64,000 nt of DNA from Podarcis vaucheri (lineage: Eukaryota), in assembly GCA_965113315.1 (NCBI GenBank), contig OZ220363.1, one strand, 5' to 3'. Positions 10,858 to 52,538 of the stretch are shown here, piece after piece. The notes beneath the pieces were generated by a model. It had not been told where the DNA came from. It did no database searches and saw only the letters and a program-made list of their open reading frames with translations. The position numbers were made by a program, and so were the translations under genes. Within the stretch, counting starts at the first letter, position 1. The number at the start of each line of letters is the position of its first letter.

Positions 10858-33524
<22,667 letters not shown>

Positions 33525-34457: not shown

Positions 34458-34900
34458 TTCTGCCATTGGAACAAGGGAGGGAGGCAGGGGGATACAGAGA
34501 GCCTCCCTGAGGAACAGCTCCTTGTCCAGCAGTGGGGAAAGCCACACCTCCAGTCGAGCAGAGGGGGAAGGGGACAGCCAAGCGAGGGGAGGGCTTGAAG
34601 ATGCTACGGAGAGCCCAAGCGCCTCACCTAGCCCGGCTGGCCAGGAGGCAGACACGCCGTTTCTGTCACCCAGCTTGCGCAGAGGGGTGAAACGTAAGGA
34701 GGGGAGGCGGAAATTTGGGGTGTCTAAGTTCTTATGTTGGGGGAGAAACCAGAAGGGGCCACTCCCGGAATCTGCAAGTGGCTAAGACGGACATGAATTT
34801 TATGGTTCTGCACTGTAAATAGTTTGCACCAATAAAACCTGTTAAAGAGTGTCAGAGTGCTGCCTGGTTACTCACGAGCAACCACCACCAGCACCTGACA
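34458..34900 (+). mobile_element. Solo LTR related to the 47 kb copy, ~0.9 kb upstream of SLC11A1 exon 1
   Basis: Ends in TGACA, has an internal AATAAA and a putative TSD CAACC (34453-57 / 34901-05). The 5' terminus is damaged. Aligns codon-wise with 47279-47389. Confidence 0.75.
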
Positions 34901-39110: not shown

Positions 39111-41716
39111 TAAACTTTTAGGCATAGGAGACTTCTGCCGATGGTGAAAAAGCTCAAAAAGGTTCAGAAAAGGCTGATTAAGAAACTGATTAAGAAGCAG
39201 GAGTAACTCTGGGGAGGCTATAAAGTTTTGGGATTCTTAGTTCCGAAAAAGTTGAGCAAGGGGCAGACACCTTAGAGGTTTATAAAAATGATGCATAGTA
39301 TGGTGAGAAGGTGGATGAAGAGTAGTTTTTCTCCTTCGCTCATAAAGCTAGAATGAAAAGTTATCCAATAAAGTTGAATGATGGGAGATTAAGACCAGAC
39401 AAAACTGAGCATTTCTTCATACAGTGCACTTCTACTCAGTGTGACAATGGCTATAAATTTATATGGCTTCAAAAGGAGATCAGGCTAACCATGACTATTA
39501 GTAATTATGGCTGTATACTACCTCTAGTATCAGAGGCAGCATGCCTCAAAATACCAGTCGCTGAGGAACACCACTGGACTGGGAGAGGGACCCGCCCCCT
39601 CATGTCCTCTCTGTGAGCTTCTGAGAGGCATCTGGTTGGCTCTCTGGGAAGCAGGATGCTGTACAAGATCCAAGAAGGCTCTTCTGAAGACAATGAATTC
39701 CTTACAGAGGGGCAGTGAGGACCATGACATAAAGTGAATGTCAAGTTCCTTGGGGAAGAGACCAGCCTTTTTTTGGTTCTCTGTAAAGCACCATGTACAT
39801 TGATGGGTGTGATGATAGTGGGTTTTGGTAACAGCTGCTTGCTGTTCATATAATGACTTCAGTGCTGCATTTTTATTGTGCAAAAGATTGTCTTGTGTTA
39901 CTGATTGCTTCAATTTTTGCAAGCTACTTTGGATGCATGCTACAGAAAAGTGGGGATAAATAATAAATATAATTTTTAAAGTATTCTTATGATTTTTTTA
40001 AATTCACTGTTTGGACAGTTCTTTGGCTGCAGGCAGGCTACCAACTATGTACAGCTACACTAAGCTTCAGCATATGGCTGTATGTAAATGCACATATACT
40101 TTTAAAGCTCATATAAACGCAAACATTGATAGGGTTTGACAGGCCCTAGGCAGTCACTGACCCCTTTTCTTTGTTCTCATATTACACAAGGCCTTCACTG
40201 ATGCAAACCTAAAGATCACATGGCAATAACCTCTATTGAAATGAATTCCTTTTTGTTGAGTAACTATAATTGAAGTTTGGGGGTGTTAATTTTCTTAAAC
40301 CACAGGTATCCATTCCATCTGTACAAGAGTGTTATCTTTGATTCCAGAGAGCCCTGTTTCCTCCTTTGAAGAAACATAAATGGTTGCAAATTGTCTTTAT
40401 CACATTGAGCTTATTTGTGAAGGACGTTGAACACTGGCCTCACATGATGCTGAGTCATCATCTCAGTCACATCCCCAGTTCTCAGAACCTGTCCGCCTCC
40501 TGTTTAAGGGGACAAGCTACACTCCAAGCTCACTGTGGAAAACAGATGGCAAGCATGCCATCCTTGTACCCGCCATCTTACTATTGACTGGTTTTGATGA
40601 AGGCGGGCAGCTAAGTACTCCTCAGCAGGTTGGATTTGGCCCCTGGACCATTCCTGGCCTAGGAGTACAAATATAGGTGAGCAAAAGAGCTATGTTTCGT
40701 TTTGCTGTGAACATTGGTTCTTCTCATATCTCCCAACTGATTTCCTTTATTCTTCAAAGGGATCTTTCTTGGTTTATTATTGCTCCCTTCACAGCAGGTG
40801 TGGGGAACCTGTGGCCCTCCAGACGTCACTGAACGACAGCTCCCATCAGCCCCAGCAAGCAGGGCCAATTGCCAGGGACAATGGGAGTTGTGGTCCAGCA
40901 ACATCTGGAGGACCAATGGTTCCCCATGCCCACTAAAAGAGGTTACTACAATGGTGTGGGAGGTATGTTTCCATACTTTCATCCCACAACATTGGTGTAA
41001 TGTTTAAAGGCCCAGCACAACAAGGGCATGTGCAGTTCTTTCCCACAGAATTGTTGCCCATCTGGGACCAGAGTGGCCACTGAGTTGAATCATTCAAAAC
41101 GCTGAATGATTATCAAGCTTGAGGGACTGACTGTATGAAGGCCGTTATTCTTACTAATATGCTGCTTTCTTTCGCAGCTGGAAAGGTTCTGGTTTCTCAA
41201 TAGGCAAGAGAGAGGGAGGAAGGAGGCTAGTAAGTTCAAAAGCAGCTGGTTTGCCCCCTGGAGTACAGATGTCAAGGCCTGGGGGGAAAGGGGGGAAAGG
41301 GGGGAAAGGCAAAAAAACCACCCCTGCCTCATAACTCTCATCCAGGGTGACTCAGTCAGAGCCCTGACACTGGAGCAAGATGAAATGGGTATCTGCCCTG
41401 TAATTTTGAGGAGCAGAGAGGAGTTGCCCAACACAAAGGGGATCAGAGGGACTCATAGCAATGTTTTCAGGAAAGCTTTTCATTTTCCTGTTTTGTTTTT
41501 TAAACAGCATGGTGGCCAGTGCTGAAATGGCACCCCTGCTTCAAAAATGCAAAACCAAAGGAAAATGTGAGAAATGAGTTACAACACACTGTAAGAATCC
41601 CTGTTAGCTATGGGTTACTGCACTTATGGAATTGAATATCCCCATTAGTAGTATCATCATTTATCTATGGATGGCTGAGGGCTATCCCTGTACACTGCTT
41701 TTCCTATGCAGACATA

Positions 41717-42352
41717 CCGTATTTTTCGTCCTATAAGGCGCACCGGCCCATAGGACGCACCTCATTTTTTGGGGGGGAAAAATGAATTTTAAAAAATTAT
41801 TTCCCCCCCCCCAGCCCTGGCTGCCGCCCCAAGCCTTGCGCTCACCTGCCCGAAGCAGGGGAAGCCCTCCGGAGGGCTTCCCCTGCTTCGGGCGAGCGTC
41901 AGCAAGCCTCGCACGCCCGGCAGGAGGTCCCACCGGGTGCGCGAGGCTTGGGGCGGCAGCCTGTCGCCCGAAGCAGGGGGAGCCAAGCCTCGCGCACCCG
42001 GTGGGACCTCCTGCCGGGAGCGCAAGGCTTGCTGACACTCGCCCGAAGCAGGGGAAGGCCTCCGGAGGGCTCCCCGTGCTTCGGGCGACAGGCTGCCGCC
42101 CCAAGCCTCGCGCACCCGGTGGGACCTCCTGCCGGGAGCACGAGGCTTGCTGACACTCGCCCGAAGCAGGGGAAGGCCTCCGGAGGGCTCCCCGTGCTTC
42201 GGGCGACAGGCTGCCGCCCCAAGCCTCGCGCACCCGGTGGGACCTCCTGCCGGGCGCGCGAGGCTTGCAGGCATTCGCCCCATAAGACGCACCCCGATTT
42301 CCCCTTCATTTTTGGAGGTGGAAAAGTGCGTCTTATGGGGCGAAAAATACGG
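41717..42352. mobile_element. pogo/Tigger-like MITE carrying an internal GC-rich 118-bp palindromic array
   Basis: TIRs CCGTATTTTTCG / CGAAAAATACGG, TA TSD; unit starts at 41985, 42103 and 42221. Confidence 0.9.
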
Positions 42353-43763
42353 TAATATTTTTGTACAGAAAACATTTTCAGTCAGTGAGCAAACAAACAA
42401 ACAAACAAACAAACAAACAAATATCCCTTTATGGAACAATTACCAAGGGGGATGAGATACTGTGCTAAAAGAACTGTGTTAAGAATATGCTGTACTTTCA
42501 TAGTTTGATAATAGGCACAATATTTCTTTTTTAAAAACCCCACATTTCCTGTGTTCTCTTTCCCAAGAAAAAATGGCCCATGTAAACATCGCCCGTCTCC
42601 TAAGTAAGTACAAAAAAAAATTTGCCAGATCTATCTACATGAAGAGAACATAACTGGTGCTCTGTAAAATGTTGAACTTTCAGGAGGGGTATTGCGAGAG
42701 AATAGCTGAGGACAATTTCAATTTTAAATGTTTTAAGGTTTTGGTGCATGTTTAAATGTTGTAACTTCTAATATTGATTTAGACAAAACAACAAAATTGT
42801 GTTTGATGGGGATCTTGCTATTTACATGTTTCAAATGTAAAGGCTGGGTCCCTACAGATGTAACTGGAAAAAAGGACCTGCCTGAGTGAGAATGACTGGC
42901 TCTTAATGTTGGCAGATATACTAGAAACAGAGCTGACGCCACCTTTTCCATCTCCTTCCATTATTCGGAAAGGATGTCTACTTCTTGAATTTTTTTTAGA
43001 ACACTTGCAGATTTATCTGAATTAACGTTTGTTTGATACCTTATTCAAGGTTTGATTCAAATATAACAATGCGCAGGCATGAGCCATCGGTTTGTACAGT
43101 CACACCTACCTTTCTCACCTCCTCCCCCTCCTGAGGGAGGAGAGGAGATGCTAAGTTTCTAGCTGCAATAAACAGTAGCTTCCCACTTTTGACCATAGTT
43201 TTCAGTTACATCTGAATCAAGCCAGTGCATCTTCTTCCACAGCCATTAGCTGTTCCTCCACACAGAAGTCTACATATTTGGACGCACCTTTTAAACTCAT
43301 TGTTTTCAATAATAGGGGGAAAAACTTTATTTGGTCTCATTTTTTGTAAATTTACTATCAATTGATTCAATTATTTATTGGCTGAGCTTTCGTCTCTAAA
43401 ACCAAAAATTTAAATTCAGAGAAGTCTGTTATAAAGTTTAACTCCTGCCTTCTTCTTTTTTCTTTTTTAAGGATACATTTGATCCAAAATGTCACATTCT
43501 GGAGGTTTTCCACCACTTCCCACTTTGCAGAGTCGCCAGCTCTGTGCTGGGTGTGGAAATGCTAGCGGTTTCAGTTCCTACTCCCTGCAGCACTCCTAAC
43601 ACCCTTTGGGAAGCAGTGTACCTCAGGACTGAGCCTCTGCCCTGGACACAGCAGTAGTCATCATGCACCCCTCTGGGCAGGGCACGCCCCCAGCAACTTC
43701 CAAAAACAGTTTCCGCAAACCCCAGCGTCATTCTCTGGGTCTTTATTCTTCTGCTGGAATAGT

Positions 43764-43976
43764 TTAGACGTGGTTGCGAAAGGGGCTTGGCTTGTCGGAT
43801 GACCGAAACGACCTGCAGGGCGGGCGCTCCGCTGAAAAGGGGGCAAAGAACTCCGCAGCAAAGGTGACCACGTCATCAGGCTTGCGAAGGAGCAGCAGCT
43901 GTAAGAAATCTGCCAACAGTGCACGGAGCTCTGGGTGGCGACGCACATAGGTGGCATGGCTTGCTTGCAGCTCCTC
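43764..43976 (-). CDS. CATIP: CATIP last coding exon ([16 protein letters not shown]...PFRNHV*)
   Basis: 213 nt ending in TAA. RIIa-like dimerisation helix; AATAAA signals downstream. Confidence 0.95.
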
Positions 43977-46900
43977 CTGAAGGGAGGAAACCAAACCCCC
44001 GTTAGAGGAGGGTCTCTCAGGTTGTTGCTCTATCCAGTTTGGTGCCAAGTACTTCAGGTAGAACTATATATATTTGGAGGCCCACTAATTGACCCTTGGC
44101 AAGAGCTGGCACATTTTAAGGGCGTAGGCAAGACTCTAGCTGCCACACAACTCACCTTTCTGTCTAAGAACTGGGAATACAGCTGCACATCCTCTTCCCA
44201 ATCCAGCGGGATTTTCTCGAAGACTGGACGAGGGTCTGGTTCATCTGGGAAGAGGTGGAAATTGAAGCAGAGTTAGAAACATGGGAATTAGAGATTGATG
44301 TCCATCACATACTAGAAATCCATGGCTCTTAAAAATAAATAGTGCAATTAAATTTCAATCCATGCCCAAATGAAAGAGAATGCATTTCTGCATTTTGCCC
44401 AAGTTAGTTGATTCACTCCCAGATGCTGTCCCCAGTAGAGGCCAGCACAGATTCTGGGCCTCTCCAGACTGGTGTTTTGTTGTGGGTGTATCCTGCAACA
44501 CGTTCTTGACACAATAATAGTGTGTTAATGGTGGATTTAGTCTACTTTAGTTTGCTTTGAGATACTTCCCCAATTAAGGGACGCGAGTGGCGCTGTGGGT
44601 TCAACCACAGAGCCTAGGACTTGTTGATCAGGAGGTTGGCGGTTCGAATCCCCGCAACGGGGTGAGCTCCCATTGTTCGGTCCTAGCTCCTGCCAGCCTA
44701 GCAGTTCGAAAGCACGTCAAAGTGCAAGTAAATAAATAGGTACCACTCTAGCGGGAAGGTAAACAGCGTTTCTGTGTGCTGCTCTGGTTCACCAGAAGCA
44801 GCTTAGTCATGCTGGCCACATGACCCAGAAGCTGTCTGCGGACAAACACTGGCTCCCTCGTCCTATAGAGCGAGATGAGCGTGCAACCCCAGAGTCGGTC
44901 ACAACTGGACCTAATGGTCAGGGGTCCCTTTATCTTTACTTACTTCCCCAATTGCAATCATATTTTTGCTTTCCAAAGGGGCAATAGCACAACAGAACTG
45001 AAACAAAAATTAACTAGAACATTTGTAGTATAAAAAAGGTTAGAAACTTCAGCAGGAGGTTATGGGAGATACACTGCATGGAAATGAAGCAGCGTGACCA
45101 CCCCAAAAACTTTTGCAGGCACTAACAGTATGGAAAGCTGATGTGACCACCTCAATTGCAAATGATCACAAATGTCCAATGAAGAAAGGATGTCTGGAGG
45201 GGGTTCAACTACCAAATGCCCCAATTGCCTCTGGTGACCATTCCCAACCGCTGACGGGGTGGAGGGAGGGAAATTTCACAGACTCCTGCCTTTTACCTGT
45301 GTCGATCAGAATGGGCATCTGAAGGATCACCATGGTGGCCGGGGATCCAACCTGGACACGGCGAGATAAATGCCTGGGTGGAGGAGGCAAGAAGGAAAAC
45401 TAGCCAGCTGGACCCTCCCATATTTTCCTGGGAACTGTAAGAGATAGGCAGGAGCCCTGCAGGACTGTAGCTGCATGCGACTCTGGTGCCTTCATGATGT
45501 GTTGTGAATGGATCATCATGAGGCATGCCAGGCCTAGGAATGGGAAGTTCTCCTGCCATTACCAATGTGTTTCTTTTAGTTAATCAACTGACAAATGTAT
45601 CTTGGTGGATACCGAAGATGCAAACATCTTCTGTATCCTCTTCTCCTCCCCACATTTTGCACGTCATTTTGCATACGGAATGCAACTGATTTGTTTCATT
45701 TATGGTTCTTAGGGTGGAATAAGGGAGGGAGAGATGGGGAATTTAGTACACACAACCTGTGTGTTGTACTCAATGTATTTGTAATAATAATAATAATAGG
45801 GTTTTTTAAAGCACTGGCATTCAAAGGAAACCAGGCTGCGCTAGGAAACCTACAGTAAGAATGCTGTCAATAAGACTGTCAGAAGCTATTCTAGGTCAGA
45901 GGGAGGGAGCCATGTTGCCTGCAAGGAAGGGCTGGGCACAAGCGATTGCACTGGAGCCTGCTTACCCATCCGACAGGAAGTAGAACTGCCAGCACAGGGG
46001 GACCTCGTCCATGGAGTGCACAACTCTCTCAATGACAAACACCTCCACCTCCTCTTTGCCCACTTTCTGCTTCTGGATGCCCAGGGAACTCTGGGAAGCG
46101 AAGTGAAGAACGAGAAAGGTGAGTTAAAACGGTGCTGCTGGTGAGGCAGCAAAGCCTTGTTCTCTCCTGCCAGCATATAGTTAACTTTAGACAGTCAGCT
46201 GGCCTACATGTTTTGGTCAAATCTTCACGTGGAAATCTTTGCCAATCTACCAAGGGCTGGGCCTACGTAGCTGGATAGGTCAGCACAATATATGCTGTAA
46301 CACTGGTCTACGGCCCTTCCTGACACAAACTTCCTCATGCATTGCCAACACCTGCAGGGGGCCCCACTAAGACACACTCACATAGGTGCAGGGGCAGATG
46401 TGCTGGTCAATGCCAAATGCGAGGAAAATGGCATCCTGTGGTACGGCTTGCCTCCTGGCCATCACCCGCATCACCAGGAAGTTGGCAGACTCTGAGACTA
46501 GACCATGAAGCTGTGCACGTTTGTAAGAAAATGTGTCAACGTGGATCTCTTCCTGTGAGAGAGAATAGAGGAAAGACATTTTCACCAAATCCAAGACAAC
46601 AACAGGTCATTCTGGGGAAATCATTTTGGGACTTATAGATGCCACTCCTTAGTGCTTCAAGACAGGCTTAGCCATTCGTGGGACAAGAATGGGAAACCGT
46701 GATCTTGCTGCCCTTTGTCATCTGACTGTTATGAGGGCTTGTGCAGCATAGTGGTGAAGACTATGAGTTGGGAAGTCCTCAGTTCAAATCAGATCCCAGC
46801 TGCAAATTCACTAGGTGGCATTTGGTACTAAGCATGACTCCTTTGGCCTCAGACCAGCTCATATCTGCAACATGAGGACAATGCTGTTCTTCTTAGTGGG

Positions 46901-49900
46901 CTGGTGTAAGTACTGTGAGAATGAAGGTGGAGGGTTTGGAAATGTGCAATAGAAATGTTCCGGGACATGATCTGAAGGCACATGCTCAGGAGATCTGGGT
47001 CTGTTTGGTGTCTGGAGATCACCTGCCTTGAATTCCATCATGGAAGAAAGAAGGGGTATGTCAGGGAACTGACATCGGAGCAGAGGGGAGAGGCGGTGCT
47101 TCCCGATTCTGCAGAAGAAGGAACGAGTAAGGGTAGAGAGAGAACGTCATCTGGGGAAGAATGTCCAGGTGACACCAGGAAGAAGGGAGAGGGAGAAAGC
47201 ATTTCGGAGGATAGGCTCCGAGACTCTGGCACTGAAGGCAGTGAAGAGAGTGGAGGGGCACCACTGGGCACGTCCACTCTGCGCAGAAGGGTTACGCGCA
47301 GAGAGCTGAGGCGAAGGTTGTCCGTCAAGGAGCTTTTATGCTGGAGGAAATTTAGGAGACGCCCACTCACGGATTCGTCAAGCGACTGAGCAGCAGCAGC
47401 ACCCAGGCTGCTCAGTCAGGGAAAGACACAACCAACCCCTAAGCAGTTTGGAACAGCTAGAGGTTTACACACAAGCAACCCCAATTCCCGTGACAGGGTA
47501 TAAAGGTAATACATAAATATAGTATGCCATATTGCTGTTTGTCTATTTAGAATACTTAACAGGGTGCAAATTGCTTTACAAGCCTTGCAACAAGGCTGGA
47601 CTCCAAGGTAGTTAGACTACAAAATAGTGGAAAGTAACAGTCTCATAGTCTGTTAATCCCTGATGACAACCAGTGAAACAAGTTATTATAGATAACATTC
47701 AAGGACAGTAGCTAGGAATGCTTGAGGGATACAGTATTTGTGAAACTAAGTATGAACTAACCAGAGTCAGACCTTCCAGTGCTGTGAATAATCCGCACCA
47801 CAGGGACATTGTGTTATTTCTGTTCCTGAACCAAGATTTGAATGTAATCTTTATTTCAGGATCTTTTGTAAACTGCTTATAAAGTGGGAAATAAATATTC
47901 TAAATGAATAAGTAATGTGTGAGTCAGAACTCACTTCTTGATTGTTCCCATGTAGTTCTCATTCAACAACAGCCACAATCAAAATGCATTTTAAAACACG
48001 TTATTTCAAGAGAAAATGCAGTTAGAAACTTGTATTTTGAGGGAGGGGGGATGTTTAAAAATAAGTATTACGTAAAATAAAATTTTGGTTGTGTGGATTT
48101 AATAGGGATATCACACTGGAATGAACTTACAGGTGAACAGACATGAAAGTTACATGGATTTGAATTACTAGTGTGATTATTTCCCTTAACCTAGAGAGGG
48201 AGGGAGTTGGGCTTGACTTTCCAAATCCTTTAAGAAGGATCAGAATTTACTCACATCTCTTTCCACCACAGTTTTGGTCACAAAAAGCTGGTCTTGGCGT
48301 CTCACCACATGGGTCCTGGTTTCCACTGGGTGCTCTCTGAACTGTAGAAAAGAGTTAAGTACCACAAGATGATACATCCATGCCAGACAGATGAACTTAA
48401 AATTTTTTTTTTTTACTCAGGAGTACTTATGTCTAAGCCCTTTGTCCCTCTAGTGCAGAGGTGGGGAATCTCTGGCCCAAGGCCTAATTATGGGTCCCAG
48501 TTTGGCCTGCAAGACCAGTTCCCAAAAGCAAATCAGGATGAAGGCTTATTCTGATTTAAAGTGTTGCTTTAAATCCCAGTCCCCACAGGGGGAAGGTGGA
48601 CTGACAACTGCATTTCCAACAGCCTGTTTTTGAATGGGCTGGATATTCCACTGATTTCAAAGCGACCTAAAGGTAAGGTTACCAGATTTTTTTCAATGAA
48701 GCCGGGGACACTTTTCAACTTTCTACTAAATAGACGGATTTTGTCAGGGAACAGATTTGTAAATCCGGGGTCTGTCCCTGGGAAATGGGGACGTCGGGTA
48801 ACCTTAACCTAAGGCCAACTATCCTAGTAAGTTTACCCAGGAGAGCAGAAAATGGAGATCATGAAGGAAACCTGCAAAAGGGGGGCGGGACTGAAAAGAT
48901 TTCCCCTACCCCCATGCTTCAATGTGAAGAGGAGAAATCTTGTCAGGAATACAGATGTTTAGAACAAACTTAGTTGGTCTCTAAGGTGCTACTGGAGAAT
49001 TTCCTTATTTATTCATTTCAGGTGTTTAGATGTTATCTTGCATCCAGGTAGCCATGGTGAAGGGGACACAAACAAGATATTTACCCTCACACTTTCCTTT
49101 GTGTGCTGCTCCACAGTTTCCAATTTCTTTGTTACATATCCTGATAAAGAAATAGATAAAGGTTTAAAAAATAAACGTTAAAGGTTATGCCACCTAAACA
49201 CTCCCTGTAAGCCCAGGTCGCCTCTTTATTACCCTTGGAAATACTCCAGTTTTTACCAAGAGTTCCTGAAGCTGCCTACCTACTCTCGGAATTTTCCTGA
49301 AGTTGTGTCTGATAGCTGCTAGAAACCACTGTGACGGCTGCCAAACTTACTGTGACTGGGTTGATTCCACACTAGCTGTTTTCTCTGGAATGGATATCAT
49401 TCGTTCACTCTGTTTTTATGCAGGATCCAGATGATTTCTCTTCCAAAATGTTGCATTCCGGTGTTTTCTGTGCTGTCAGCCCAACCTAATTTGTGTCATT
49501 TCTTTGTTTGCTTAAGATGCAATTGTAACACTACTCTGTCCAATGCCATGAAATGGCAAAGCACTACTGACCCATCTCGGGGAAGAGTGGTCTGTTTTTG
49601 GCTTTTCTTCATTCTCTGCCTAGTTGCTTTTCCAGCGAGACAAGCAGCTCAACTGAGGTGTTTGAAGGAGAGCAGAAGGTTCTAAGCATCAGCCTTGTAC
49701 TAACTCTCAGATCCAGGCAAAACATATTTACACAAGAAAAGCAGAATGACTAGTATTGTGCATGAACTACTTAAATCTCATTCGTTTCACTGGGTTTTAG
49801 GCAGCCTACCAAAACACATGATTGCTTGGGGGAGTGGGTGTGAATGCACAAATAATACTCCATGGCTTTTAGTCAACATATACCAGCTGCATTAAGAAGA

Positions 49901-52538
49901 TAAAATAAAAATTAAACGCATATTGTTAGCGACAAGGGAATAGCTGGGAGAAGGAACAGCAGTGTGGTGTAGTGGTTAGAGTGCCTGGGAAACTGGGGTT
50001 CTGATCCCCATTTAGCTGTGAAGCATGCAGAGTGACCTCGGGCCAGCCACTGTCTCTGAGCCTAACGTACCTCACACGGTTGCTGTGATGATAAAATGGG
50101 AAGAGGGAAGACCATGTATGCCACCTTGAGCTCCTTCAAGGGAAGGTGGGAAAGAAATGTACTAAATAAGTACATCACAAAATTAGGAGGTCTTTGCTGA
50201 TTGAAGGCTGCAATTCTGAACAAGTTTCATAGCCCATGAATCCCATTAAATGAAGTGGGAATAATTTTAAACATAGTAGAGTCTTGCTTATAGTACGGTT
50301 GCCATATTTCAAAAAGTGAAAATCCGGACAGAAAAGTTGTTTAGCTTTTCGGCAAAATCTCAAAAGAATAAATAAAAATGAAGTTTTGGAGCTGTTTTTA
50401 AGGAAAATCACACAAAACGACACTGCTGACATGGGTTGCCATATGCCCAGATTTTCCTGGACGCTTCAGCAGATTCCGCCATGACACTGCTTCCGACAGC
50501 CAATCGCCGGTTATGTCCGGGAAATTCCGGACGTATGACAACCTTAGCTTATAGGAACAGGAATTGTAGGGCCTTATTGGGGATACAGCAGAATATTAAG
50601 TGCTATGTCCACACTGTGTGGCTGGAACCTTGCTCAACTTTTTCTTTCCTTGGGTCTAAAACAGTTATCAGACTAAGGAAGTGTAGCACTAGGAACCAAA
50701 AAATGCCTATATTCACTTGCTACAAATACTCTATGGTTAAATCTCTTCTTCTCATGCTATAGCTCCATCTCTGCATCCATAGTTTCAAGGTCCCATATCA
50801 CCAGTTGTATAATCTGAGGCCTGAAGGCTGTTATTTGGACACAGGAGTAGTCCGACTCTCTCCCTTCTCCATAACACCACCCTCCTCCTGCCAAATTATC
50901 ACAGTGAAGTTACCTGTAATGGATGTTGTGCAAGGGATGCCATCAATGGTCCCCTTGCTGCTGGCACGGACCAGGTACAGGTCTTCTTCGTCCCAGTCGT
51001 CTGGTGAATAGCTGGTCTCCTCCACTGAGATGGTGAATGTCCCTGTAGTCTCTCCGCTCTCTGAGATGGCAACCAGTGATTCCCCAAAAATGCAGTACTT
51101 TATCTCTTTCAGTTCTGTAAGATGAGAGAGTAGAACATTATCATTTGGGGGAAACAGAGAGAGAAAAGCCTGTTTCCACACAGAATGGGAAAATATTCCC
51201 CAAGAACAGAAACCAGTTGTTGGTGGTGGATGCAGAGTATTTTGGCGACAAGGGTAGATCCAACCCTAAAACCCATGAGCAGAGACCTAATATCAAACCA
51301 TGTTCTATATGGAAGTGTTTAACTGAAAAGCTGAAGGAATGAGTCCACTAAGTTTGGAGTCATCTGGGTCACATTGACCTCCTTTCTCCCTGGCTTCTTC
51401 CCAAGGCCTGCCAGTTGCTTGCCTGTGATTTGCCTGGTGTTTTGTCCATGATTCATTACAGCATTTAAAAGGATGGTCAGTCAGGGAAAGGCGTGGGGAA
51501 AATGGGCTGCATTCCAGTTTAATAAACAATAGATCCTCTCCTGCCACCCTGAACATTCCCATATTGTCTGAGGCTGAGGACACATTCCAGTGAGGGAAAA
51601 GCTCTCAAAGAGGGTGCAGTCCAGGGCTGGTGAGACATGTGGCCTGGAGAGGGGGGAAAGGGCTCTGGGAAAAGTCCTGAGGGTCAGACAGAGAAGCCTG
51701 CATTTGGCCCTGAAGTTTCCCCATCCCAGCCCTGGGACATACCATCTTGCAAATCAATCTGGCAAAGCCTTGTACCAGGTATAAAAGGTGGCTCACAAAA
51801 TTGGCTGTTGAAGATAGGAAACTTGGTTTTGCGTTAGGAATTAGCATCAAACCTGTTGATACAATCATGCCCATGCTGACCAATAGTGTTCCTTAATGGT
51901 TTGGAACTGAGGAAACTAGACATGACATTACACTGAGAATATTCCTATTCCATTTCATTTTTTAATAATAGCAGGTGCAGGGGGACCCTCCCATTTTCAT
52001 TGAGACTGCAGCATGCAGGCAAGGGATCTTTTACTCCCCCCTATTGAAATCCCAATGAAAATGCCCCCAGTGTGGAGTGGGGAAATTCATTAGAAAGCAG
52101 CTGGGTGGCAGGATGAGGTGGCAGGTTTAAACTTCCTCTATGTCTGCTGCAATACCAATACCCCCGCCCCTCAGTGCCTGCTATGAAGAAAAAGAAAAAA
52201 GGTTTTCCCAGTGGTGCTTTTAGTGTCAGACTACTTTGGCCCTAAGACTCCTATATCTTCAAAGGTTGATAGTGAAAAAGCTCCTGGCTGTCAGCACCCC
52301 TCCCTTACATGGGGGAGAACAGGGTAGAAGAGCCTCCTCCCTCCTCAAAAGGGGCACCCACCAATGAGCGAGAGGAATTCCACTGCCCCTTTGTTGGCAG
52401 CTGGGACTTTCGGTATTGGCACCTCCTTCGCCACCTCGTCTGAGGTCTTCTTTTGCATTGTGGAGAAATGAGGACTTAAAGCCTTGGAACAGGTGGGTGT
52501 AGAAGAGGACACTTCCCAGAGATCCGCTGTGAGGAAAT
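43764..52538 (-). CDS. CATIP: Ciliogenesis-associated TTC17-interacting protein (C2orf62), gene span; 5'-most exon not located
   Basis: Nine phase-consistent exons translate to motifs such as [39 protein letters not shown] and [35 protein letters not shown], matching recalled CATIP. Directly upstream of SLC11A1 as in mammals. Confidence 0.95.
44156..44244 (-). CDS. CATIP: CATIP exon ([30 protein letters not shown])
   Basis: 89 nt, AG/GT. Confidence 0.94.
44578..44940 (+). mobile_element. Sauria SINE (Squam1), full length
   Basis: tRNA-like head with A/B boxes, (TTTACC)-type tail, 13-bp TSD TACTTCCCCAATT (44563-75 / 44941-53). Confidence 0.93.
45297..45373 (-). CDS. CATIP: CATIP exon ([25 protein letters not shown])
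   Basis: 77 nt, AG/GT. Confidence 0.93.
45966..46090 (-). CDS. CATIP: CATIP exon ([25 protein letters not shown]...FYFLSDG)
   Basis: 125 nt, AG/GT. Confidence 0.93.
46382..46552 (-). CDS. CATIP: CATIP exon ([10 protein letters not shown]...HICPCTY)
   Basis: 171 nt, AG/GT. Confidence 0.93.
47059..47495 (+). mobile_element. Solo LTR (Gypsy-like), in a CATIP intron
   Basis: TGTCAGGGAA...TTCCCGTGACA termini, perfect 5-bp TSD GGGTA (47054-58 / 47496-500), 437 bp. Confidence 0.85.
48255..48341 (-). CDS. CATIP: CATIP exon ([29 protein letters not shown])
   Basis: 87 nt, AG/GT, phase 0/0. Confidence 0.9.
48674..48807. mobile_element. Small MITE
   Basis: TAAGGTTACC...GGTAACCTTA inverted termini. 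Confidence 0.65.
49085..49140 (-). CDS. CATIP: CATIP exon ([18 protein letters not shown])
   Basis: 56 nt, AG/GT; resembles human YLSEKLELMEQH. Confidence 0.9.
49959..50170 (+). mobile_element. MIR-like SINE
   Basis: GCAGTGTGGTGTAGTGGTTAGAGTG head and gtgacctcgggccagccac core; reverse copy at ~13760-13955. Confidence 0.7.
50293..50547. mobile_element. TAGGGTTGCCA-type MITE
   Basis: TAcGGTTGCCATA...TATGACAACCTTA inverted ends. Confidence 0.75.
50914..51114 (-). CDS. CATIP: CATIP exon ([14 protein letters not shown]...[10 protein letters not shown])
   Basis: 201 nt, phase 1/1, AG/GT. Confidence 0.92.
52362..52538 (-). CDS. CATIP: CATIP exon (DFLTAD...[32 protein letters not shown]); internal ATG at 52458
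   Basis: Strong polypyrimidine acceptor and |gtgggt donor. [11 protein letters not shown] resembles human PEANAEAIDFL. Confidence 0.8.

Follow-up and report, generated by a model that had tools for sequence, protein, structure and literature searches.

A lizard chromovirus encodes a conserved integrase tail that extends into its 3' LTR and carries motifs predicted to bind LEDGF or HRP2

The pol gene of a Ty3/Gypsy chromovirus of the lizard Podarcis vaucheri runs through the polypurine tract (PPT) and ends inside the U3 region of the element's 3' long terminal repeat (LTR), and both the frame in U3 and two motifs encoded just before it are conserved at the protein level. On balance it is probable, as a joint claim, that the 109-codon frame of a solo LTR in the window (the whole 64,000-nucleotide stretch that was analysed, from contig OZ220363.1 of assembly GCA_965113315.1) is an integrase relic that was under purifying selection, and that the tail to which it belongs is a targeting module predicted to bind LEDGF or HRP2. 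Since the motifs of the tail resemble those of host proteins that partner with LEDGF, it is likely that insertions of the element are steered through the host protein that is used by HIV.

The solo LTR (47059-47495, plus strand, 437 bp) is a member of a chromovirus family designated A, has the ends TGTCA and TGACA, and is flanked by two copies of the target-site duplication (TSD) GGGTA (47054-47058 and 47496-47500, plus strand), as a sequence-only reading of the window had reported. The same reading had described a frame open for 110 codons from the second base of the LTR with no ATG; the frame that begins at 47060 was found to have 109 sense codons, none of them for Met, followed by TGA at 47387-47389, and the ORF in this solo LTR is a relic without a start codon. 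By alignment, the first 67 codons (47060-47260) encode an acidic linker rich in Ser, Gly and Glu, and the next 42 codons with the stop codon of pol (47261-47389) encode a basic C-terminal block that includes LLCW. The LTR is 95-98% identical to the LTR pairs of 5.5-kb elements, and family A has many genomic copies at 94-98% identity (40 scored of 1715 candidates). It lies antisense within an intron of CATIP, the exons of which (CATIP_N and RIIa) extend over 43767-51265 on the minus strand, with CATIP_N exons on either side of the LTR in frames 48243-48416 and 46370-46606. Elsewhere in the window, exons of an Nramp/SLC11 gene are found on the minus strand at 16450-21136, and a GC-rich repeat at 41700-42360 contains directly repeated units of 118 nt as well as long arms in inverted orientation; a sequence related to it occurs near 958-1138.

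Judged by its domains and its predicted priming, the element belongs to the Ty3/Gypsy chromoviruses of the Tf1/sushi type and is 5.5 kb long. Three LTR pairs enclose elements of 5.5-5.6 kb with 5-bp TSDs that code for a zinc-knuckle gag, protease (PR), reverse transcriptase (RT), RNase H (RH), integrase (IN), a Tf2-type SH3 domain and, C-terminal to integrase, a chromodomain (E 2.8e-7 for Pfam Chromo, with further matches to CBX and HP1); no env was found in the two-LTR elements, and the named proteins that match most closely are those of Podarcis. The order PR-RT-RH-IN between two LTRs with a TSD is that of Ty3/Gypsy chromoviruses, and pol continues through SH3 and the chromodomain into approximately 100 codons that contain the two motifs, and then into the acidic linker and the basic block within the 3' LTR. 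In 15 of 16 two-LTR elements, 8-13 nt behind the 5' LTR can pair with a stretch that starts 22-28 nt before the end of the LTR (47468-47479 on the plus strand in the window copy, where the transcript is predicted to begin with R), and both sides of this pairing change together between subfamilies; on inspection rather than by comparison with tRNAs, the sequence that follows the 5' LTR has no obvious tRNA site. Self-priming has been described for the Tf1/sushi group (PMC6317226), and the predicted pairing is of this kind. With R-U5 placed by this pairing in the final ~30 nt of the LTR, the ORF would lie wholly in U3. The genomic RNA of LTR elements carries U3 at its 3' end. The element shares with the Tf1/sushi (V-clade) chromoviruses of vertebrates a zinc-knuckle gag, PR-RT-RH-IN, a Tf2-type SH3 domain, a chromodomain, the lack of env, a 5-bp TSD, TGT..ACA ends and a self-priming site in place of a tRNA primer-binding site (PMC6317226, PMC3601003), but differs from them in having ~200 residues behind the chromodomain, half of them encoded by U3, and in having FxGF motifs together with a degenerate chromodomain cage. 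Most full-length copies of these families are on one contig of 41 Mb (C41), a concentration that would be expected if the contig were a non-recombining sex chromosome.

Pol of the two-LTR copies crosses the PPT in the same frame and stops at approximately nt 331 of the LTR, which is the TGA of the window copy, so that integrase and chromodomain are read into the 3' LTR; this is what had been proposed from the window alone (an ORF crossing the PPT and extending ~330 nt into U3, to be abandoned if full elements had a stop before the LTR). One copy (L031), which is broken in gag and pol, has a 613-aa frame from the integrase zinc finger through the core, SH3, chromodomain and PPT (frame T-GTC) to the stop codon of the window copy; of the three elements examined first, the remaining two have broken tails. 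The tail used as a query gave 151 matches, of 57-100% identity, and the majority of these have no stops. The homologous stop ends 39 of 40 fetched elements that had been selected by the tail (for 24 of them a second LTR lies within the fetched sequence), a count that is circular because the elements were chosen for open frames. When 40 elements were chosen by the integrase core alone, 18 read through, and the other 22 are frameshifted between chromodomain and LTR (8), broken inside the LTR (6), stopped earlier (5) or lacking a junction (3), failure rates that are not comparable because an intact integrase core was the criterion of selection. The stop of read-through copies is at nt 298-454 of the LTR, with differences of whole codons and the same terminal block, and it is likewise by whole codons that the U3 linker varies in length between subfamilies; in one subfamily (L198, L193, L195) it has been enlarged by an in-frame tandem duplication of ~25 codons. 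Among LTRs selected by DNA, the frame is kept in 27 of 30 from family A and in 11-12 of 30 from an older family, B. Three copies that are 95-97% alike (L186, L208, L210) have in common one frameshift, located in a run of G immediately ahead of the PPT; distinct flanks were seen for two of them, and the LTR frame is still open in two. Either this sub-lineage spread without the U3 part of the tail or the run was mis-assembled, and the frameshift is the main result against necessity of the U3 part, which is also called into question by the count of just 18 read-through elements among the 40 chosen by integrase core. Because the frame is continuous with integrase through the PPT, it is the C-terminal tail of integrase; of the two products that had been suggested from the window alone, the integrase tail is retained and the accessory protein is left unsupported, as no start codon is conserved.

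Selection was estimated by the GY codon model from 40 real copies, which remained after removal of a near-duplicate and of a long branch (L143) from the 42 of 85 chromodomain-hit elements that are open from 290 codons upstream to the stop codon behind LCW. Omega was 0.10 in the integrase core and SH3 domain, 0.165 in the chromodomain and 0.24 in the two helix-acidic-FxGF motifs; the linkers had 0.49-0.55, with 0.51 in the rest of the tail before the LTR and 0.55 in the U3 linker (LRT 36 against omega=1), and the basic block in the last 42 codons had 0.22 (LRT 142), values that understate the constraint because neutral terminal branches were included in the fit. The shifted sense frames gave omega of 1.2-2.0 (1.3-2.0 at the basic block), and the LTR behind the stop gave 0.76-1.34 across its six frames and has many 1-nt indels. 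The comparison of dN/dS with the other frames, for which a value of ~1 had been named in advance as speaking against a selected protein, thus came out on the side of the sequence-only reading. The one shared indel in the coding part of family A is of 9 nt and both of its shared indels after the stop are of 1 nt; for family B, the coding part contains two shared indels, each of a single nucleotide. Tests of shared versus singleton changes reached significance within neither of these families (p 0.31-0.69).

The second LTR of the window from which the frame can be compared is a solo LTR of family B (34458-34900, plus strand, TSD CAACC), which is shortened by ~8 nt at the 5' end; in other copies this LTR is 458 bp long. 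Its basic block and stop (34675-34785, plus strand) align without gaps to 47279-47389, upstream of which it is out of frame; a recount agrees with the earlier one in finding 16 of 36 residues identical, 8 of these with synonymous changes, and aligned but different stops (TAA in family B, TGA in family A). For this pair pN is 0.31, pS is 0.64 and omega is 0.28, a value equalled by 30 of 5000 column shuffles for a block that was picked post hoc. The antisense frame that has its third codon positions in common with the sense frame has 17 identical residues, 8 of them with synonymous changes, and an omega of 0.36. Because this mirror frame scores equally, two copies alone are unable to fix the strand; the purifying-selection signature that had been claimed for the pair therefore stands as a low omega, but not as evidence for one strand, since the mirror frame had been overlooked. 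A decayed full element of family B has a chromodomain, both motifs in decayed form and a PPT joined to a family B LTR, and among 17 candidates looked at there was no intact full-length element of this family, only decayed ones. By eye count, none of the 150 matches listed for the family B LTR is on contigs C34, C37, C40 or C42 (~174 Mb together), which may be an artefact of candidate selection.

The two motifs are encoded by the same ORF immediately upstream of the LTR, and each consists of a helix with Phe, 8-9 acidic and Ser/Thr residues, and FxGF (RFWREQFGTTDEEEEFAGF and KWRGLFESSDGKESSFRGF in copy L031; WHLQEIFEETDSEEEEFIGF in copy L227). Solved ligands of LEDGF have the same form: EVADIFNAPSDDEEFVGF of JPO2, in which it occurs twice, LHQLFEGESETESFYGF of POGZ, and LRRFRAVF...EQFLGF of MLL1. 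The TND-interacting motif (TIM) has been defined as a helix, an acidic linker of 8-16 residues and an optional FxGF, the last of which is essential in every known ligand of LEDGF/HRP2; phosphorylation by CK2 raises the affinity of TIMs, several proteins bear two or three of them, and lentiviral integrases are the only viral mimics named in the available text of this source (PMC9987994). All three defining parts (PMC9987994) are present in the tail: the Phe of the helix, one of the permitted anchors F, V, L and I, is nearly invariant in both motifs; the acidic linkers with Ser/Thr have 8 and 9 residues in L031; and FxGF is kept in motif 2 of 40 of 41 copies, and in motif 1 of about half of the 41 (LEGF in 12 and FEGW in 5). 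A motif pattern that was written post hoc and recovers three of four known motifs has two matches in 18 of 41 copies and a single match in the other 23; none of 100000 shuffles gave two. The motifs of JPO2/CDCA7L, POGZ, MLL1 and IWS1 are alike in their Phe helix, acidic Ser/Thr linker of 8-9 residues and FxGF (PMC9987994), and JPO2 resembles the lizard element further in having two motifs in series; unlike in these host proteins, the motifs of the lizard are in the integrase of a mobile element, and its binding to LEDGF is a prediction.

An AlphaFold2 model of the chromodomain and tail in the unbound state (mean pLDDT 55) has a folded chromodomain, a helix on the helix part of motif 1, none on motif 2, and pLDDT mostly <50 beyond residue 70, in keeping with the disordered regions in which TIMs occur; the U3 linker is likewise of low pLDDT, with no secondary structure. 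Four distant relatives (P0130, P0131, P0132 and L227) have one or two motifs and the same junction frame, and P0130, which is 56% identical over the SH3 domain and chromodomain, also has LLCW. The TND exons of both LEDGF and HRP2 are encoded by the genome. A sequence search of the PDB with motif 1 alone gave no matches at E 10; a profile of the motif region gave three matches among 1.84 billion proteins, which include few retrotransposon tails, and the two that are named are from Podarcis. The available text of two papers on pogo/Passer transposases (PMC7386202, PMC9976928) has no relevant mention of a helix-acidic-FxGF motif.

Positions one and three of the chromodomain cage are not F, Y or W in any of the 41 copies, so that the three aromatic residues of type I are not present and the chromodomain is type II-like by a published definition (PMC3059260). 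In a tree of 17 rows, from which three proteins were left out, the 13 rows that bear FxGF group together as a single clade (99/99) from which cage aromatics one and three are missing. All four outgroup rows retain the cage, and no FxGF was seen in them; one of these rows is a gene model that is cut after the chromodomain. Since the gain of the motifs and the loss of the cage fall on one branch, they are one event, not a correlation. That a lacertid Gypsy clade thereby swapped the mark-reading of its chromodomain for mimicry of LEDGF/HRP2 ligands by tandem FxGF motifs, and that U3 is coding space for interchangeable chromatin anchors, with a basic block that has LLCW in one clade and an HMGN-like RRSARL in another, is put forward tentatively, as having almost but not quite an even chance.

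The classical bipartite nuclear localization signal has two basic residues, a spacer of 10-12 residues and three basic residues of five. This pattern is present in the basic block of 39 of 41 copies, a count that has no chance control and is easily reached in an Arg-rich block, and it does not explain the conserved LLCW. The block has no family match, as Pfam searches with the U3 peptides gave nothing meaningful; the best score of these peptides in the ESM Atlas, 0.78, is at most a lead, and AlphaFold2 places a short low-confidence helix over LLCW. The role in nuclear localization or chromatin targeting that the sequence-only reading had suggested for the Arg-rich helix is still conjectural, and the two FxGF motifs, which lie outside the coordinates of that reading, are the better candidate for targeting. 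Acidic-patch motifs of HMGN and Dsup have been described as RRSARLSA and PPRRSSRLT (PMC12487698), and a core of the RRSARL type was not found in the basic block of family A or B. A second Gypsy family, C, identified from an insertion in L182, has a pol that continues into the 3' LTR for 115 codons; its chromodomain cage is complete, FxGF is absent, and its tail ends in PRRSARL, which closely resembles the HMGN/Dsup motif (PMC12487698). Because family C also reads into U3, integrase tails encoded by U3 are not unique to the FxGF clade. The basic block of family A may act as an arginine anchor. Family C (L182:662-1009, minus strand; L222-L224) is young and abundant, with an LTR that begins TGTGATGG and 150 matches at 97-99%.

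Other explanations of the tail differ in what is selected and in what it would bind. A selected tail could tether integrase by other means, through another TND protein (IWS1, TFIIS, ELOA, PNUTS or MED26), through the basic block on the acidic patch, or through both; TNDs besides those of LEDGF and HRP2 do read helix-acidic motifs (PMC9987994), the tail of family C ends close to an acidic-patch motif, and the basic block is constrained as strongly as the two motifs. Yet the FxGF that is kept in motif 2 of nearly all copies is the mark of LEDGF/HRP2 ligands (PMC9987994), and the basic block of family A has neither an RRSARL-type motif nor a Pfam or Atlas match, so that tethering by these other means is considered rather unlikely. 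It is less probable still that the U3 part is largely dispensable, being translated because pol has no earlier stop, and that conservation of the last 40 codons is partly due to promoter or RNA signals in U3. The frameshift shared by three related copies, the within-family tests without significance and the linker omega of just 0.55 would agree with this, but constraint at the DNA level would not yield 0.22 in one frame and ~2 in both shifted frames, synonymous change is plentiful in the window pair, changes in length are of whole codons before the stop and of single bases after it, and LLCW is kept in a lineage as distant as that of P0130.

The two remaining explanations concern which protein the frame encodes. 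A separate accessory protein of U3, comparable to nef or sag and translated from a start of its own or from a spliced RNA, could begin at an in-frame Met at codon 29 in some copies of family A and at codon 2 in family C; this Met is missing from the window copy and most subfamilies, and with no stop between integrase and the U3 frame, such a protein is very improbable. Hardly any credence is given to the idea that the selected frame is the antisense one with common third codon positions, which is open in both LTRs of the window and scores equally on the pair: across the 40 copies its omega is 0.375 in the basic block and 0.90 in the linker compared to 0.22 and 0.55 for the sense frame, it has stops in 12 of 40 linkers (in copies chosen for an open sense frame), and it joins no known domain.

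If the tail is the LEDGF/HRP2-binding module favoured here, it would stay on mature integrase as a disordered arm. Its two motifs, probably phosphorylated by CK2, would dock on the TND (the integrase-binding domain) of LEDGF or HRP2, as do those of JPO2, POGZ and MLL1, and docking would tether integration to H3K36-methylated gene bodies or transcribed chromatin, replacing the degenerate cage of the chromodomain. The basic block encoded by U3 would likely be a bipartite nuclear-import signal and may also grip DNA or nucleosomes. The insertion of the window copy into an intron of CATIP is an isolated case rather than an enrichment in gene bodies. Raw RNA reads of a related species (17-37 partial reads per run, a depth that is uninformative) left the tail uncovered.

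HIV nef and MMTV sag are coding sequences within U3 that are separate genes with their own starts, whereas the U3 frame of the lizard element is the end of pol. Lentiviral integrase binds LEDGF via its folded core dimer, not via an FxGF motif. Coding into the 3' LTR is already known from group A of the plant CRM elements (PMC3059260), with which the lizard element has this feature in common; in that group, a CR motif that targets centromeres takes the place of the chromodomain, whereas the lizard element retains a true chromodomain with the tail behind it and is not a member, and Pfam gave no match for the U3 peptides. The integrase of gammaretroviruses is tethered to BET proteins by a short motif in its flexible C-terminal tail, and both this tether and the LEDGF tether of lentiviruses resemble the present proposal in that integrase picks sites through a host chromatin reader (PMC5053271); the gammaretroviral motif binds the ET domain, whereas the lizard element would reach LEDGF/HRP2 through motif mimicry. 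Reviews, in their available text, present LEDGF tethering as a lentiviral trait (PMC5053271, PMC9987994), and searches of the open full-text literature turned up no report of an FxGF/TIM motif in a retrotransposon integrase or of a U3-encoded integrase tail in vertebrate chromoviruses. If the proposal is true, a retrotransposon that copied a host FxGF ligand would represent a convergent route to LEDGF, and an integrase outside the lentiviruses would reach the cofactor of HIV by an independent route of short motifs. The proposal predicts that insertion is biased to gene bodies in comparison with the cage-bearing family of the same genome, and bears on the targeting of vertebrate chromoviruses. 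Hundreds of solo LTRs in the lizard carry coding relics of integrase, which matters for the annotation of repeats and of gene models that absorb them. Among public squamate gene models, those annotated as a vomeronasal receptor (P0133), TM9SF2 (P0136) and a LINE reverse transcriptase (P0126) have absorbed pieces of integrase.
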